From Rhodothermales bacterium (lineage in GTDB: Bacteria; Bacteroidota; Rhodothermia; Rhodothermales; Bin80): DNA of 64,000 nucleotides. The notes under the pieces are model-generated. The model was given only the letters and a program-made list of their open reading frames with translations, was not told the DNA's origin and did not search any database. The position numbers and the translations under genes are program-made. The DNA lies in NCBI GenBank assembly GCA_965218495.1, contig OZ244626.1:223886-287885 (forward strand). The letters run 5' to 3'. Below, one piece after another: positions 53,812 to 59,990 of this stretch (position 1 is the first letter of the stretch; the number at the start of each line of letters is the position of its first letter).

Positions 53812-54179
53812 TCAGTTGACCAGATCCTTGATAGTGACACGACCTACCCGGTTGGAACTGCTCTGGTGAATGAGCAACTCGCCGTTGCGGGTTACCCAGA
53901 CGTGTCGGATGATACCCACACCCGAAGGGATAGCCCAGCTTTGAAACGTCTCTGTCTCGGGGTCGAACCGCACTAGCGCGTCAGGACGCATGCCCGACTC
54001 ATTGTACCAGATTTTGTCGTTTATGACCGCCAGTGCATAAGGGTGCGAACGGGGTCCGCTCGGCGACTCCCACTCCTTGATCTCACCCGTGGCGGGGTTG
54101 AGCCGCCCAAGGCGCCCCATAGTCGAGTTGACAAACCACACCATTCCGTCGCTTGAGATGCCCAAGCGTCGCACGCGGC
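53812..54179 (-). pseudogene. 3' fragment of the IS-disrupted cytochrome c/Vgb-family gene
   Basis: RRLGISSDGMVWFVNSTMGRLGRLNPATGEIKEW... continues in frame from the 5' fragment once the IS and one TSD copy are removed. Confidence 0.9.
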
Positions 54180-54259
54180 GGGATCGCACAAATTCAAGTT
54201 GGGAATTGGAGAGTTGCTGTGGAGGTGGACCCTGGTCTCCACCATTCCTTTCCAACCAT

Positions 54260-55228
54260 ATGAACCCCTCACAGCCTGTCTTGGGGAGGGCTGAGGCGCC
54301 TGCAGACGCCCAGATCAATCCCTCCGGTGACTCGCGGCGGCTTCTGATGAAGCTCTGCACGCACATACTGCAACAATTGACCACCGACTGGCCCATTCCG
54401 GCAGCGCATCAGCAGCCGGTGCCACCGCCCGTAGTGATCAAGGCCTCTGCTGCGGCCCAGGACACAAAGCCGGACTCGGCGCAGTTGAATGAAGCGTGGC
54501 AGCTGTTGCATTCGCGCAGTCTGCAAGACGACCCGATCGTTGCGATCTGGCTGCGCGGGCTGTGCCCACGCGGCGTTAACATCGTTCTTGGAGCGGGTCT
54601 GACCATCACGGGCTATCGCCGCATACTTGGCCTGGTAGCGTGCTACCCTGAAAACGTCTCTGCTCTTACGTCCTTTGTGCAGTCGCTGTCCGATCGTGGT
54701 CTTTCGGCCGCCTCCGGGCTGCTCTGTGTGCTGCCCAGCAGTACGGGACTGCAATCGGCGGTGCGCCAGGTGTTCGGCCCCAGGGTCGCTATACAGCGCT
54801 GTCTCAATACGCTGTTGGATCAAGTCACCTGTGGTCTTCCGGAAGACCTTGTTCCTGTGTGTCGCAATCGCCTCCGCCAGGCATGGAATGGGTTCGATGC
54901 CCGGGAAGCTGAACGCGCACTCACCCGTATTCACCAGGACTTGACGCGCGTCAATCGGTCCGCAGCGAAGGTTCTATGGGAGGGCCTGGAGCAATCTCTG
55001 ACGATTCAACGCACGGGCATGCTGCTCAAGCTCGACAGGGGGCTGCGCGTGATGCGCTTCATGGATGCCATCGGTCGCAGGTTGCAGGCCCCGGCCAGCG
55101 CCGTTTTCCAGCAACGCGAACAGATGGCACTGGCGCTGTTGGAACACGAGGCTCAGCTGCGCCGTGTGGCCCATGCGGCCTATCTGCCACAACTTCGTGA
55201 GACTCTCATCAACCTCAACGCCGTATGA
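54260..55228 (+). CDS. IS256 transposase homologue with degenerate catalytic motifs (322 aa)
   Basis: Aligns along the neighbouring transposase (EN, RG, GL, VFG, QRC, AW, EGLE) but reads WLRG, LPSSTGL, QRCLNT and FMDAI at the DDE and CxxH positions. Confidence 0.8.
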   Translation: MNPSQPVLGRAEAPADAQINPSGDSRRLLMKLCTHILQQLTTDWPIPAAHQQPVPPPVVIKASAAAQDTKPDSAQLNEAWQLLHSRSLQDDPIVAIWLRGLCPRGVNIVLGAGLTITGYRRILGLVACYPENVSALTSFVQSLSDRGLSAASGLLCVLPSSTGLQSAVRQVFGPRVAIQRCLNTLLDQVTCGLPEDLVPVCRNRLRQAWNGFDAREAERALTRIHQDLTRVNRSAAKVLWEGLEQSLTIQRTGMLLKLDRGLRVMRFMDAIGRRLQAPASAVFQQREQMALALLEHEAQLRRVAHAAYLPQLRETLINLNAV

Positions 55229-56541
55229 TGACCCATACCCCTATGCTGGATCAATCACTCATCGAGGACCTTCACGGGCTTGCGCAGAGGAATTTCATCG
55301 GCCTGGCCAGCTGCCTTGGATATCTCGATGATCTTCTTACCAAGATGGCCACATGGGTCATGGAAGCCGAAGCCCGCTTCATTTGCGGCGCACGTGGGAA
55401 GCACCGTAAGACCGGCTTTCAGCGCTGGGGGACGAATCCGGGTTCCATCCGCGTCGGTTTGGAGCGCATTGCGGTCCGCGTTCCGCGCGTACGGAATGTA
55501 CGAACCCGAAAGGAGCGTCCTCTGCAAACGTACCGCCTCTTGCGCAAGCGTGGGCTTATGGACCGGGAAAGCGTGACCAGGGGGTTGCTGTGTGGACTCT
55601 CGCGGCGCAATTACAGGCAGGCGGCCCAGGTCTTCACCGATAGTATGGGGTTGAGTGCCAGCAGCATAGGCAACGTCTTCGTTACGCAGACGGCAGCGCT
55701 ACTGAAGGAATTCGAGACGCGCCGATTCGATCAGCACACCTTTGCGGTGCTCCTGCTTGATGGCAAGTATTTGGCTGGTGTGCAGATGATCGTAGCGATG
55801 GGCATCACGACCGAGGGCGAGAAGGTCGTCCTGGGCTTTGCGGAAAGTCGTACCGAGAACAGTGCGCAGGTGCAGTCGCTGTTGCAGGATTTGTTGCGTC
55901 GGGGCTTCACCCATACCGACAAGCTGTTGGTACAGGTGGACGGCAGCCGCGGGCTTCGCAAGGGGATCAGTGCGGTGTTTGGGGATGCGGTCGTATTCCA
56001 GCGCTGCCAATGGCACAAGCGTACCAATGTGACGCGTCACATCAAGAGCGAGCCAGCGGCCACGCAAATGAAGCGTCGGCTTCAGGCGGCATGGGAACTG
56101 CCCACGTACAAGGAGGCACGGGCGGCGCTTGTGTCGCTGCATGGAGCGCTGCAGCGATCGTGTCCGAAGGCCGCGCGCAGTCTGGAGGAGGGTTTGGAGG
56201 ATACGCTGACGCTTCACCGGTTGGGGGTGCGGAACCAGGCTGTCAGAGACAGTCTGAAGACGACGAACATCATCGAGAACCTCAACAGCATTATAGCGAA
56301 CCGATCACGGAACGTGAAGCGCTGGGGATCATCGGGGATGCGTCAGCGCTGGTGCGGAGCGATATTCATGCAGTACGAGTCGAATCTGAAGCCGATACGC
56401 CGGGAGGACATGAAGGAGCTGACCCAGGCGTTGACCACCTCCGGGGGTCGAGGGGCTAGTGGGGATTCGGTCTGCCAGCCCCAAAGGACTGCAAAGGCAA
56501 CACCTGGCGCTCAATGCCCGCGCGCAGTAGTGCGCTGCTGA
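55225..56541 (+). CDS. IS256 (Mutator-type) transposase
   Basis: VRVPRVR, GLSRR, LLLDGK (D1), VQVDGSRGL (D2), QRCQWHK (CxxH) and TTNIIENLN (E). Confidence 0.92.
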   Translation: MMTHTPMLDQSLIEDLHGLAQRNFIGLASCLGYLDDLLTKMATWVMEAEARFICGARGKHRKTGFQRWGTNPGSIRVGLERIAVRVPRVRNVRTRKERPLQTYRLLRKRGLMDRESVTRGLLCGLSRRNYRQAAQVFTDSMGLSASSIGNVFVTQTAALLKEFETRRFDQHTFAVLLLDGKYLAGVQMIVAMGITTEGEKVVLGFAESRTENSAQVQSLLQDLLRRGFTHTDKLLVQVDGSRGLRKGISAVFGDAVVFQRCQWHKRTNVTRHIKSEPAATQMKRRLQAAWELPTYKEARAALVSLHGALQRSCPKAARSLEEGLEDTLTLHRLGVRNQAVRDSLKTTNIIENLNSIIANRSRNVKRWGSSGMRQRWCGAIFMQYESNLKPIRREDMKELTQALTTSGGRGASGDSVCQPQRTAKATPGAQCPRAVVRC

Positions 56542-56844
56542 CGCTGGCATAAGCAAAACCCGCAGCTGTCCGGACGCTCTGAGGCGCTGCACCCTGCCAA
56601 GATCGCCGCTTACGCGTGCAATCAGAGGATTCCTGCGGGATTTCGTGCCCGAGAAGTCACTCCACGAGCCTGCCTGCGCCCGAAAATCCGCGTGTGAGCA
56701 CGCAATTGGGCCCATATAAGCTTGCACCGTCCCATTTGCACCCACACACTCGGCCCGTAGCGCCATCTATTGCCAAAAGATATCTACTTTGAGGGCCCAT
56801 CTCGGCAGAAGCTGCCGAAACCCAACTTAAAAATGTGCAATCCC

Positions 56845-57723
56845 CACGCGGCTACCAGGATCAGGGAGGGTATAGTAACGAACTTCCATGGATTCGGGGT
56901 TGAGCGCGCCCAGCTTGTTGGTGCCATTGTAGGCTACCCAAATCGTTTCGTCCTGGGCCACCACGATGCCATACGGACGCTGCTCCGTATCAACCTCGGT
57001 GAGTTCGCCGGTGCTCGGGTCCAGTCGGCCCAGCATGCCAGCCCGCTGCGAGGAAAAATATAGCTTTCCGTTGGGGTGCCAGGTCATCGTATGCGGATCG
57101 CCCGCTTCAGTCTTGTATTCGGTTATCTCCCCTGTTGCTGGGTCAAGTTTGCCAATGGTTCCGTTGCTGTTGCCCGTGTACCAGATGTGCCCCTGCTCAT
57201 CTGGCACGATGCTGTGCGGCTTGGCGGATGGCGGAAGCGGAAATTCCTCCATCTCACCGGTTACAGGGTCCAGGCGGCCGACCAGGCTGGCCCACATTCC
57301 GGTCCACCAGATCGATCCGTCCGGTGCCTCAATAGGGTCTCGAGAGCGCTGCCCAAGTGTCGGCACCATCCATTCTTCAAACTGTATCTCCACGGGGCCG
57401 TCGATGAGGTTAGGCCTGCGCTCCTTCTGCTCCGGAAAATGTTCGGCCAAATAGTCCGCAATTGCGTTAGCCTCGGCTTCTGACAGTTGTACCATGGAAG
57501 CCGACACGGCTTTCCATGCTTCCAGAGTGTTGTAGCCGGCCGATCGGTTTATAGTGCGGGCCGTATGGCAGCTTGTGCAGTAGCCCTCTACAAGCGCTTT
57601 GGCAGGTCCGTCTGGGAGCGTAGCGGTGCCGCCGCGCTCCTGAGCCTGCGCGGCCTGGTAGCAGCAGACAAGCATGGCAAAGACAAGTAGGGTGCGAATA
57701 GTGAAGTCCTCGTGTTGGCGCAT
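56845..57723 (-). pseudogene. 5' fragment of a cytochrome c + virginiamycin B lyase (Vgb)-like beta-propeller gene, disrupted by the IS
   Basis: Signal peptide, heme motif CTSCH and repeated GRLDP.TGE..E propeller blades; ends PDPGSRV at the IS junction. Confidence 0.88.
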
Positions 57724-57752
57724 TGGGCGGCGATAGGGGAGCTTTGGTGGCC

Positions 57753-59990
57753 TCATTGGATGAAGGTGTAGGTGTACTTCAAGAGCAACGTGCGGCTTTC
57801 CAGTGCGGGGAGCACAGGATCCACCCCGTACCGATCAGTGTTGCGGCCCTCGTTGAATACTATCCAGAGGTCGTTGCCCTCGCGGAAGTTATAGCGGAAT
57901 CGCAGGTTGGCCAGAAAGTTGTCGGTTGAGGCATTGTACTGCAAAAACGCGTTGAGGGACATCTTGGTCGAAAGGCCGATCTGCGTACGAATGCGCCCGA
58001 TGTGGACACTGAATCCGTCGTTGCGCACCGGAAAGCGAACACGGTTAAACTGGTAGGCGGCCCCGAGCTCCAGAAACCGGGTCACATTCCACGTGGGCTC
58101 GATTTCTAGGCCAACATTGCTGCCGTCGTAGAAGGTCCCCGCGGTGGCCGTCGCATTGGTGCGCAGCAGATGGCCATCGCTCATCTCGTAGCTCCACTCC
58201 ACCACTGCGTACCGATAGTGCCCTTCCGGAACGACAGTATTTTCGGGAAGCTCAAGCGGCTCACGGAAGTCCTCAACGTTTACTTCTAGGGTGGCGGCAT
58301 GCAGGTCCCCATCCTTGAGCGCGATTGGGACTTCAAAGCGATAAAAGGCCCAATCCAAGCTTCGATCATCGTCCCTGAAGTAGTGGGTCATCAGAAACTC
58401 TCCCCGATAGGACAGCACACGAGAGGTCTCCTTGGCAAACCAGCCATACCCGACGATAAAGAAAGGGTTGAGAAAGCCCGCCCGCGACAGGAACCCAATT
58501 CCCGGCAGAAAGTCGCGGCCCTGCCACGTACCTGAAAGCGTGTAGCTGAGGCCGATTTGCGTTCGACGCTCCAGCCGAATGCGTGCAAAACCGCTGGATC
58601 CAGCCTCAAATGGGTCCAGACCTGTATCGTCGGAAAGCACTTGGGCCCACTTTAAGATCAGGTAGTTGCTTGGCGAGAATCGTAGCTGGCTGTCGAATCC
58701 ATAGACGTGGTTGTAGGATCGGTCCCACCCGATGCGCGTGGTGACTATCCCGCCGACAAAAGAATTGGCGTTGAATACATCTCTGCGTAGCCGATAAACG
58801 CCAAAATTCTCTCCGGGCAGCCCGCCCGCCTTTGCTGTCTGCATGTTGAGCATGCCCACATCCCAATGCCCTACGCGGCCGACCAAGCGAACTCCGCCGA
58901 TGATTGGCACCGTCTGGCCCTCATGAAGGCCGATCCTCCGAGAATGGAAAATACGGCCAAACCGGCCTAGCGTACGAAACTCAAAGATGCCCGCCCGCTC
59001 CTGAAAGAACTGGCGCTTCTCTGGAAAAAACAGCGGGAACCGCGAGAGGTTGACCTGCTGATCGTCCGCTTCTGCTTGCGCAAAGTCGGTATTAAGTGTG
59101 ACATCCAGCGTAAGGTTGTTCGTTAGGTTGTACTTGAGATCAAGGCCTAAATCCCCATCCAGGTCATCACTTGCCTCGTAACGGTCCCCTGCCTCCGTCA
59201 GCTCATTAAGGCGGGAGGCGCCACTTGCCACGTAGGGGGTAATGTACAAGGGGCGGTTGGATACGGCACCTTCAAAGCGTACGCGAGCGTACTGAGAGGG
59301 CTTTGCGTACCCCATATCCCAGTTAGGCGGAATGGCTGGGAAAACATGGGTCTCTGCTTTGCTGGGGATCCATCGCCCCAATGCCATGCCCATCTCCACT
59401 GTCCCGTCCTGGTCCTGAAAGCTCAGGCTGGAAAACGGGATACGGATCTCGGCAAACCAGCCTTCACTCGTACGTGTTGTAGCTGCGTCCCAGTACGTAT
59501 TCCAGCTCTGGTTAATGACGCGATCGAATGGGTCACCCCCGCCAAACTCCAGATCGTTGGAGATGGCATAGTCCATTCGAACGCCATTGGGATTGGTGGA
59601 AAACCAAAGCCCATGCTGCTGATCGTTGAATGTGTCCAGGAAAACCGAGAATACATCGTCTCCACTATAGCGGTCACGGTACATCGAGTTGGCGCGCATG
59701 TCAGCAACATCATCGTAATAGAATTTTGCCGACGCGTAGATATAGTCATTGTCGTACCCAACGCGAATCTCGGTGCGCTCGGTTGCCTCTCCCAGGAATA
59801 CCGGTTCGTACATCACCATCGGTATGGGATCCAACGTTTCCCACACAGGATCGTCTAGCACGCCGTCCAAATGGATGTGCCCAGTGACGCGTTGCAGGTA
59901 GTAGATGTCCTGCGCACGAATATTTTTCGCGTAGATGAGCGAAAGCGAGACGAAAACGAACACGGCAAAGGCCTCCCGGCGCAATCTCAT
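57753..59990 (-). CDS. Exported CBM9-like/DUF5916 domain protein (second paralogue)
   Basis: IHLDGVLDDPVW, EIRIPFSSL, LNTDFAQAEAD and PEKRQFFQE motifs; C-terminal LKYTYTF. Confidence 0.8.
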   Translation of the reverse strand: MRLRREAFAVFVFVSLSLIYAKNIRAQDIYYLQRVTGHIHLDGVLDDPVWETLDPIPMVMYEPVFLGEATERTEIRVGYDNDYIYASAKFYYDDVADMRANSMYRDRYSGDDVFSVFLDTFNDQQHGLWFSTNPNGVRMDYAISNDLEFGGGDPFDRVINQSWNTYWDAATTRTSEGWFAEIRIPFSSLSFQDQDGTVEMGMALGRWIPSKAETHVFPAIPPNWDMGYAKPSQYARVRFEGAVSNRPLYITPYVASGASRLNELTEAGDRYEASDDLDGDLGLDLKYNLTNNLTLDVTLNTDFAQAEADDQQVNLSRFPLFFPEKRQFFQERAGIFEFRTLGRFGRIFHSRRIGLHEGQTVPIIGGVRLVGRVGHWDVGMLNMQTAKAGGLPGENFGVYRLRRDVFNANSFVGGIVTTRIGWDRSYNHVYGFDSQLRFSPSNYLILKWAQVLSDDTGLDPFEAGSSGFARIRLERRTQIGLSYTLSGTWQGRDFLPGIGFLSRAGFLNPFFIVGYGWFAKETSRVLSYRGEFLMTHYFRDDDRSLDWAFYRFEVPIALKDGDLHAATLEVNVEDFREPLELPENTVVPEGHYRYAVVEWSYEMSDGHLLRTNATATAGTFYDGSNVGLEIEPTWNVTRFLELGAAYQFNRVRFPVRNDGFSVHIGRIRTQIGLSTKMSLNAFLQYNASTDNFLANLRFRYNFREGNDLWIVFNEGRNTDRYGVDPVLPALESRTLLLKYTYTFIQ

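Follow-up and report, generated by a model that had tools for sequence, protein, structure and literature searches.

A two-gene IS256-family insertion sequence combining a complete transposase with a conserved, catalytically dead paralogue

The element and its genes

The window analyzed here is a 64,000-nucleotide stretch of the genome of a Rhodothermales bacterium (contig OZ244626.1, positions 223,886 to 287,885 of the forward strand). By sequence inspection, window positions 54180-56844 are occupied by an IS256-family insertion sequence (IS) of 2665 bp, which carries two consecutive open reading frames, ORF1 and ORF2. A preliminary description of the locus had interpreted it as an unusual IS256 subtype in which an active transposase is paired with a retained, non-catalytic paralogue. 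The main features, in window positions, are:

54172-54179, no strand: left target site duplication, CACGCGGC, 8 bp, identical to 56845-56852; the 8 letters shared where a contig of public run X1 joins 54171 to 56845
54180-54209, plus strand: left terminal inverted repeat, tip GGGATCGCACAAAT; the same end is found in 35 full copies
54260-55228, plus strand: ORF1, 322 aa, transposase paralogue (type T1) without DNA-binding domains or catalytic residues; ATG at 54260, TGA at 55226-55228
55225-55228, plus strand: ATGA, in which the end of ORF1 overlaps the beginning of ORF2; a further in-frame ATG, at 55228, shares one base with the stop codon
55225-56541, plus strand: ORF2, 438 aa, complete IS256-family DDE transposase with D179, D239, C261xxH264 and E351, and a helix-turn-helix (HTH) motif G124-L-S-R-R128
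56815-56844, minus strand: right terminal inverted repeat, tip GGGATTGCACATTT (minus strand), from inverted-repeat and tip-motif analysis
56845-56852, no strand: right target site duplication, CACGCGGC, matching the left 8 bp

The ends are imperfect inverted repeats with 30-nt arms that are 80% complementary and, with CACGCGGC on both sides, agree with the single repeat pair and perfect 8-bp duplication described before. A 14-nt tip motif occurs within the element solely at the two outer ends. The genes overlap by 4 nt, and no internal IS ends of the kind that an old, nested IS would have left were found between them. The ATGA overlap at 55225-55228 was as described, and so was the 322-residue ORF1 frame, free of stops and frameshifts; only its implied start was off by one base, the ATG being at 54260.

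ORF2 is a complete transposase and ORF1 a dead paralogue

ORF2 matched the Pfam model PF00872 (Transposase_mut) with an E-value of 1.5e-34 over the whole profile (positions 16-375 of 379), and scored 195.6 bits against the NCBIfam IS256 equivalog model NF033543, passing its cut-off of 150. Residues 73-365 align with the solved ISCth4 transposase, and the full IS256 catalytic set previously attributed to ORF2 is present (D179, D239, C261, H264 and E351).

ORF1 aligned with ORF2 by BLASTP at 31% identity over 173 aa (E 2e-20), and matched PF00872 at 44 bits (E 1.8e-11), above the gathering cut-off of 21, with residues 106-248 on profile positions 181-320 of 379. Its alignment along the catalytic and helical insertion domains of ORF2 is confirmed. 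The match to NF033543 covered residues 75-249 only and, at 63.7 bits, fell under the cut-off of 150. At the positions of D179, D239, C261, H264 and E351, the residues of ORF1 are R, P, C, T and D (in WLRGL, VLPSS, CLNT and FMDAI), which reproduces every substitution in the preliminary description (D1>R, D2>P, CxxH>CLNT and E>D). Active DDE transposases have three acidic residues and the CxxH histidine; ORF1 does not have this set. In ORF1, a Pro/Ala-rich linker stands in place of some 100 ORF2 residues, G124-L-S-R-R128 among them, that are aligned to the NDB and HTH domains of ISCth4, so that the proposed exchange of the GLSxR region is also seen in the alignment.

An AlphaFold2 model of ORF1, based on ten family members, had a mean pLDDT of 81. 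It consists of an N-terminal helix (approximately residues 21-42), a linker at 44-68 that is disordered in the model, and a five-stranded RNase H-like core with a four-helix insertion domain (73-317). The five best matches of this model in the PDB were all ISCth4 transposase chains, with probability 1.0 and TM-scores of 0.55-0.57. The N-terminal helix of ORF1-type proteins is collinear with residues 26-65 of an ordinary IS256 transposase (E ~1e-3 in a 10-sequence search, weak by itself), a region that in ISCth4 belongs to the dimerization domain. Judging from these alignments, ORF1 is evidently the descendant of a transposase gene. In the databases, ORF1-type genes are named "transposase" only, a label that inflates the count of active transposases in these genomes.

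The two-gene unit is mobile

The genome from which the window comes (G000; 4.6 Mb, one contig) contains 35 full-length copies of the element at 95-100% identity, plus fragments and interrupted copies. Perfect target site duplications flank 19 of the 35, 18 of them of 8 bp and one of 9 bp, and all are different. The other 16 have no perfect duplication, several showing 6-7-bp matches by eye. An empty site was found as well: the X1 contig that joins 54171 to 56845 skips 2673 bases, corresponding to the 2665-bp element and one 8-bp repeat, with 8 bp in common. As this contig represents the uninterrupted host gene, the insertion is polymorphic among related populations. The whole two-gene unit is therefore mobile, and the question raised earlier, whether other mobile copies carry both ORFs between different duplications, has a positive answer here and in further genomes. 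No junction of abutted ends, as in a circle, is listed among the assembled contigs examined, although contigs cannot exclude one.

ORF2-type matches kept by the filter in this genome numbered 29, of which 21 had an ORF1-type gene directly upstream and seven were interrupted or truncated copies; the remaining one had an upstream ORF1-type gene at 39% identity. A multiplied derivative lacking ORF1 was not seen among these 29 matches.

Three variants of the left tip (GGGATCGCACAAAT, GGGATTGCACATTT and GGGAATGCACAAAT) occur among the 35 copies and tend to accompany particular right-end variants, an association that suggests either subfamilies or a pairing of the ends in an abutted junction. Two diverged two-gene lineages are also present in the genome. 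One, at G000:C1 ~2391936-2392922 and 1650809-1651795, has ORF1-type and ORF2-type genes 57% and 49% identical to those of the window element, and its two full copies share 2211 bp. The other, at ~1802514-1804500, has an ORF1-type gene at 39% identity and an ORF2-type gene (44%) with an interrupting stop.

Both genes are under purifying selection

In the genome of the window, the ATG start and open frame of ORF1 are retained in all 35 copies; in two of them, indels of 6 and 9 nt leave the frame intact. For ORF2 the frame is open in 34 of 35, the exception having an internal stop, and in seven copies a one-base difference in the final eight codons affects the tail only. All three indels in the bodies of the ORFs are multiples of three, and those in non-coding parts are single bases. 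Nucleotide diversity is 0.074 in the 5' leader, 0.024 in ORF1, 0.031 in ORF2 and 0.054 in the 3' non-coding part (element positions 2363-2665), and variable sites in ORF1 fall 34, 23 and 52 times on codon positions 1, 2 and 3 (chi-square p = 0.003).

A related genome contains 43 loci, which may belong to genome G001 of the 61-genome search described below and are not counted twice. All 40 full-length matches have an ORF1 of 322 aa, and the remaining three are partial. ORF2 has 438 aa at 36 loci and is shortened at six; one further locus is only a fragment of the element. Across eight pairs of elements, ranging from 2% to saturating divergence, pairwise dN/dS (Nei-Gojobori) was 0.15-0.29 for ORF1 and 0.13-0.32 for ORF2. 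Between the ORF1 genes of the window and of locus L023, 81 changes at 717 non-synonymous sites stand against 102 at 249 synonymous sites (Fisher p = 1e-22). The core is more constrained than the N-terminal part, with a pN of 0.093 in residues 71-322 versus 0.181 in residues 1-70. ORF1 is under purifying selection and constrained like ORF2: its homologues are not frameshifted in the 35 copies here or the 40 full-length ones of the related genome, and its dN/dS is not near 1.

These data bear on the idea that ORF1 is a relic without function, left by an older IS256 copy next to which another copy inserted, and carried along between the present ends. ORF1 shares 40% identity over 186 aa with a single-gene IS256 transposase of another genome, versus 31% with its own ORF2, and being no closer to its partner than to an unrelated transposase, it could have come from a different copy or lineage. 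A relic, however, would hardly keep its frame open down to ~30% identity in many lineages, with a dN/dS of ~0.2 (p = 1e-22), a start codon conserved in 35 of 35 copies, only in-frame indels and no internal ends beside it. We regard this explanation as very improbable.

In the tail of ORF2, at window positions ~56516-56517 (element position 2337/2338), the gain or loss of one base in 7 of the 35 copies gives rise to alternative C-terminal tails.

Relatives and history of the gene pair

A search of 61 genomes around that of the window identified ORF1-type open frames of ~320-340 aa in numerous genomes of the same family, mostly as multiple copies, with identities from 79% down to ~33%. Fourteen loci were fetched, and in ten an ORF1-type gene was directly followed by an ORF2-type gene. 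Of the other four, one had both genes broken, two had no visible ORF2 (one being at a contig end), and one was an ordinary single transposase. Among 20 further copies from six genomes the pair was present in 18, four of these with a partial ORF2 match; one of the remaining two was interrupted by an insertion. By comparison of copies, the two-gene elements measure 2664 bp in G010, 2325 bp in G029, ~2596 bp in G028, ~2300 bp in G016 and 2279 bp in G015. In these five genomes the elements have inverted ends of ~30-35 nt, and ~11 of 15 copies are flanked by 7-8-bp duplications (by eye; four need a one-base shift of the boundary). Their ORF1 is only 30-44% identical to that of the window.

A profile of ten ORF1-type proteins gave 6123 matches at E up to 0.001 among 1.84 billion representative sequences, and the best 150 of these were combined with 19 from another search for a survey of catalytic signatures. 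Among the matches listed, the sequences without the second aspartate were short and aligned from the N-terminus; the rest were ordinary transposases of ~405-460 aa with a DDCHE signature. Among the ORF1-type sequences that entered the tree described next, the second aspartate is replaced in 38 of 38, and the glutamate position varies (D, N, K, A, T and others). A FastTree tree of the core, built from the 156 of 190 aligned sequences that had at least 200 filled core positions among 250 profile columns, placed the 38 sequences without the second aspartate in one clade (support 1.0) with no DDE sequence inside. A quick IQ-TREE tree of a hand-picked subset of 59 sequences gave the same split (SH-aLRT 100). 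The clade has two main parts. One, with the pattern x-P-C-T-x and no catalytic residues, includes the ORF1 proteins of the window and of G010, G029, G016 and G015; the other, with D-P-C-H-x, keeps the first aspartate and often the histidine (G020 and G028). They mirror two groups of partner transposases supported at 98 and 99 by IQ-TREE.

We read this pattern as pointing to one ancient inactivation, after which the gene pair would have diversified jointly while the catalytic residues still left were lost step by step. A long branch connects the ORF1 clade to the other sequences in the tree, and ORF1 may have arisen either as a tandem duplicate of ORF2 or through capture of a different IS256 copy. 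That the dead paralogues form a single clade, diversifying alongside their partner transposases, strengthens the earlier proposal of a distinct IS256 subtype, and together with the open frames in all full copies and the dN/dS values it supports the view of ORF1 as retained and non-catalytic.

The ORF1 family seems to have a narrow host range. A sample of 301 genomes from across the phylum contained ORF1-type frames in the family of the window only, and three other matches were ordinary transposases with frames of 390-442 aa. A tblastn search of 72,556 plasmid records with ORF1 matched 51 records. Since none of these covers 80% of ORF1, and the listed matches begin at residue 61 or later, they are ordinary IS256 transposases. 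When the most basal representative of the ORF1 type was used to scan metagenomes, the sole match was 68 residues long and lay at the end of a contig; the gene context of this subgroup was taken from the genome of the window.

One protein, P0004 (435 aa, from one contig), is 91% identical to ORF1 over 72% of its length and carries the signature R-D-C-H-E. It appears to join the N-terminal part of an ORF1 to the C-terminal part of an ORF2, as if the paralogous cores had recombined.

The ORF1/ORF2 junction and expression

In related copies, the first ATG of ORF2 is changed to CTG and the second is kept. Five short contigs from two RNA libraries matched the element at 95% identity or more, with a depth of 2-6, and one of them spans the ORF1/ORF2 junction; because DNA carry-over is possible, these were not counted as proof of transcription, and no meaning attaches to stretches that lack RNA coverage. 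A scan of the element for promoters and terminators gave counts at or near the shuffled expectation. By eye, no purine-rich ribosome-binding motif was seen upstream of either ORF in any lineage (window 54242-54259 and the equivalent stretches of loci L022-L035), and these upstream stretches are pyrimidine- or A/T-rich. Purine-rich ribosome-binding motifs are commonly missing in Bacteroidota-Rhodothermota hosts.

A programmed frameshift that would fuse ORF1 to ORF2 was considered and rejected: no slippery site was visible by eye before the ORF1 stop, and the spacing of the genes varies among relatives.

Comparison with known systems

Classical IS256 members are ~1.2-1.5 kb long and have a single transposase ORF. 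The window element agrees with the family in its transposase type with DDE and CxxH residues, and in its inverted repeats and 8-9-bp duplications, but not in this organization: it is 2665 bp long, a second conserved gene encodes a dead paralogue that has neither NDB nor HTH, and its relatives of 2279-2664 bp also have two ORFs. ISCth4, by comparison, is 1503 bp long with a single ORF in the structural account of its transposase (PMC7780238). IS256-family elements, with the ISCth4 transposase TnpA (PDB 6xg8, 6xgw and 6xgx), are the closest known systems, ORF2 fitting the IS256 models (DDE, CxxH and the HTH motif G-x-S-x-R) in an element with inverted ends and 8-bp duplications, and ORF1 having TnpA as the best match to its predicted fold.

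Conserved dead paralogues of an active DDE/DDD enzyme are found in Paramecium, where PiggyMac acts with inactive PiggyMac-like partners. Those are domesticated eukaryotic host genes, whereas here the genes reside on a mobile bacterial IS. A second element-encoded protein is conserved with the transposase in IS21 (IstA/IstB), in Harbinger (transposase and a Myb-like protein) and in MuDR (MURA/MURB). These helpers are unrelated in fold to the transposase, in contrast to the degenerate transposase copy found here. The Mutator superfamily, to which MuDR belongs, is related to IS256 according to a 2014 survey of prokaryotic Mutator-type transposases.

IS1, IS3 and the ISMich2 group likewise have two consecutive overlapping ORFs in one IS, but their ORFs are halves of one transposase joined by programmed frameshifting, whereas each ORF here is a whole paralogue. 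The element does not belong with the frameshift-fused OrfA-OrfB systems, because ORF2 alone spans the whole Pfam profile. In the accessible part of the 2014 survey, IS256-family elements have the ordinary IS organization, and two-ORF cases appear only as frameshifted transposase halves, in another group. We found no published account of an IS256-type element with a conserved dead paralogue in the full-text literature, a scope that leaves out ISfinder and the supplementary IS256 tables of PMC3942029.

A possible heteromeric transposase

We tentatively propose that ORF2 is the catalytic, DNA-binding transposase of an autonomous IS256-family element whose machinery is split over two paralogous genes, with ORF1 as a predicted non-catalytic subunit of a heteromer. 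Overall, we lean towards this reading of ORF1; a built-in inhibitor is its main rival, and the data cannot decide between the two.

In the account of the ISCth4 structures (PMC7780238), the transposase consists of DD (residues 1-56), NDB (56-108), HTH (108-165) and an insertion domain, ID (261-325), and the dimer is held together by the N-terminal helices. This dimer binds one end through the NDB and HTH of protomer A only. The catalytic domain of protomer A purely bends the tip, via loops I and II, and it is protomer B whose active site cuts. The strand-transfer complex has its two insertion domains closed against one another via the loops between helices 8-9 and 10-11 (PMC7780238). ORF1 would pair with ORF2 via its N-terminal helix and the insertion domains, and a heteromer with one set of end-binding domains and one active site is favored because ORF1 keeps the helix and the insertion domain. 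The invariant residues N232-R233-S234 of ORF1 lie, in the AlphaFold2 model, where insertion-domain helices three and four are joined by a turn, a position that would fit a contact with the insertion domain of the partner; the ISCth4 loop at this place contributes to the ID-ID interface. In such a heteromer, the asymmetry that the ISCth4 homodimer reaches through symmetry breaking would be fixed in two genes, and the pairing would be needed for, or would favor, the spread of the element itself. We infer the physical pairing of ORF1 and ORF2, its interfaces and the positive sign of its effect. ORF1 is constrained within a selfish element over saturating divergence, with no loss seen, which would be more easily explained if the element needs ORF1. 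A stronger form of the proposal, which we put forward with greater reserve, is that this may be the first bacterial insertion sequence with an obligate heteromer of an active subunit and a dead paralogue from the same element, in which the asymmetric dimer for one-sided copy-out is hard-wired and the single active site enforces cleavage at one end. Prediction of the complex from the ORF2 and ORF1 alignments gave a score of 0.15 relative to a mark of 0.32, which speaks neither for nor against binding.

Several points weigh against a heteromer of this kind. The architectural protomer of ISCth4 also supplies the NDB and HTH, both lost in ORF1, and by this analogy a simple one-to-one replacement of either protomer would not work without rearrangement. 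ORF1 of the window type also lacks six residues at the position of loop II, including an R-W that is invariant among the partner transposases; as this loop bends DNA in ISCth4, the loss would argue against an ISCth4-like architectural, DNA-contacting role. Intact ORF1 genes within one genome may reflect only young copies, given that ORF2, too, is whole in 34 of 35, tail variants aside. Finally, the ATGA coupling is not conserved, other lineages having gaps of roughly 10 to 100 nt between the genes.

The first two of these points favor the inhibitor, a poison subunit that would restrain transposition. ORF1 could be a built-in dominant-negative regulator that dimerizes with ORF2 by the N-terminal helix, so that complexes without two end-binding or two cutting subunits damp transposition according to copy number. 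In its logic this resembles Tn5 Inh or the P-element KP repressor, except that the protein would have a separate gene. Inh of Tn5/IS50 is related to the transposase, lacks its N-terminal DNA-binding part and can form mixed multimers with it, much as would be expected of ORF1; it is, however, a translation product of the transposase gene and has its catalytic residues intact. ORF1, by contrast, is a separate, diverged gene (31% identical to ORF2) with its catalytic residues replaced, and is not a product of the Inh type. In favor of a poison subunit, ORF1 lacks the NDB, the HTH and the six loop II residues (the last in the window type), together with all catalytic residues, and retains the N-terminal helix; as it stands, it can fill neither protomer role of ISCth4. 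Lying upstream of ORF2 and overlapping its start, ORF1 would be expected to be at least as abundant as ORF2. ORF2 is also truncated in 6 of 42 copies of the related genome, with the one internal stop among the 35 here, and ORF1 is never broken there, which fits repressor-only copies that are tolerated or favored.

A trans-acting product of 35-40 copies would, however, be shielded from selection in a single copy or lineage, yet the dN/dS of ORF1 is 0.15-0.29 along element lineages. A poison subunit needs the dimerization helix only, yet the whole 250-residue core is constrained, more so than the N-terminal part. No relative of the ORF2 clade without ORF1 was found in the genome of the window, and the element has nevertheless reached 35 or more copies per genome. 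To our knowledge, such transposon inhibitors come from the transposase gene as alternative products, or from deletions that recur, and not from long-conserved separate genes. On balance, we consider an inhibitor somewhat less likely than a heteromer.

The non-catalytic heteromer subunit that we prefer and the inhibitor both assume contact with ORF2. Alternatively, ORF1 may act without such pairing, as a transposase-derived protein that binds DNA, the target or a host factor, and so takes part in target choice, in binding of the circle junction or in modulation of host replication or repair during copy-out/paste-in. ORF1-family proteins have invariant features that are absent from the partner transposases, namely several arginines (G118-x-R120-R121 and R301-R302) and a C-terminal motif (293-312), suggesting a surface with a new function. 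On the other hand, ORF1 has no recognizable DNA-binding domain, the helix it retains corresponds to the dimerizing part of ISCth4, and its strict linkage and parallel diversification with ORF2 point to joint action, which together make an independent role improbable.

Bacterial insertion sequences move mainly by copy-out/paste-in. This route poses the puzzle, set out in the ISCth4 account (PMC7780238), of how one enzyme performs an asymmetric and then a symmetric reaction. A widespread, highly active IS256 lineage that keeps a dead paralogue without DNA-binding domains offers a direct way to ask what purpose the non-cutting subunit of the dimer serves, and the two-gene element may help to show how such enzymes divide their work between two subunits. 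Should ORF1 prove to be an inhibitor, it would be a rarity, since few IS have a separate and long-conserved gene for self-restraint.

Host gene, non-coding parts and an IS110-family element

The insertion splits a minus-strand host gene for a propeller protein of the Vgb_lyase family. This gene and the non-coding stretch of the element downstream of ORF2 comprise the following features:

53812-54179, minus strand: C-terminal part of the host gene (Vgb_lyase-family propeller), from the ORF list and family match
56542-56814, plus strand: 3' non-coding stretch, more variable than the ORFs and without an RNA family match
56845-57756, minus strand: N-terminal part of the host gene (Vgb_lyase-family propeller), from the ORF list and family match

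A heme-binding-type motif, CTSCH, was read by eye near the N-terminus of the split host protein. The ~300 bp after ORF2 contain no conserved ORF, and an Rfam scan of the element gave no match at E-values up to 1. An antisense ORF of 145 aa at 56329-56766 was considered and dropped, an inner 1-nt indel (element position 2373) differing among copies. The leader is the most variable part of the element; at window 54219-54242, 18 nt upstream of the ORF1 ATG, it could form a stem of 8 bp around a loop of 8 nt.

Elsewhere in the genome, at least four copies of the two-gene IS are interrupted by an IS110-family element, inserted at the same point in ORF2 (element position 1501/1504). This element is 2955 bp long and has a 422-aa ORF that matches PF01548 and PF02371, as at G000:C1:708900-712100 (locus L108). 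Sites of the IS110 type also lie near G000:C1:980305-983272, 641923-642808 and 2951685-2952505, and internally deleted derivatives of ~0.85 kb occur at the identical point in ORF2. This looks like site-specific targeting of one IS by another, with the IS110-family element inserting into the two-gene IS256 element.

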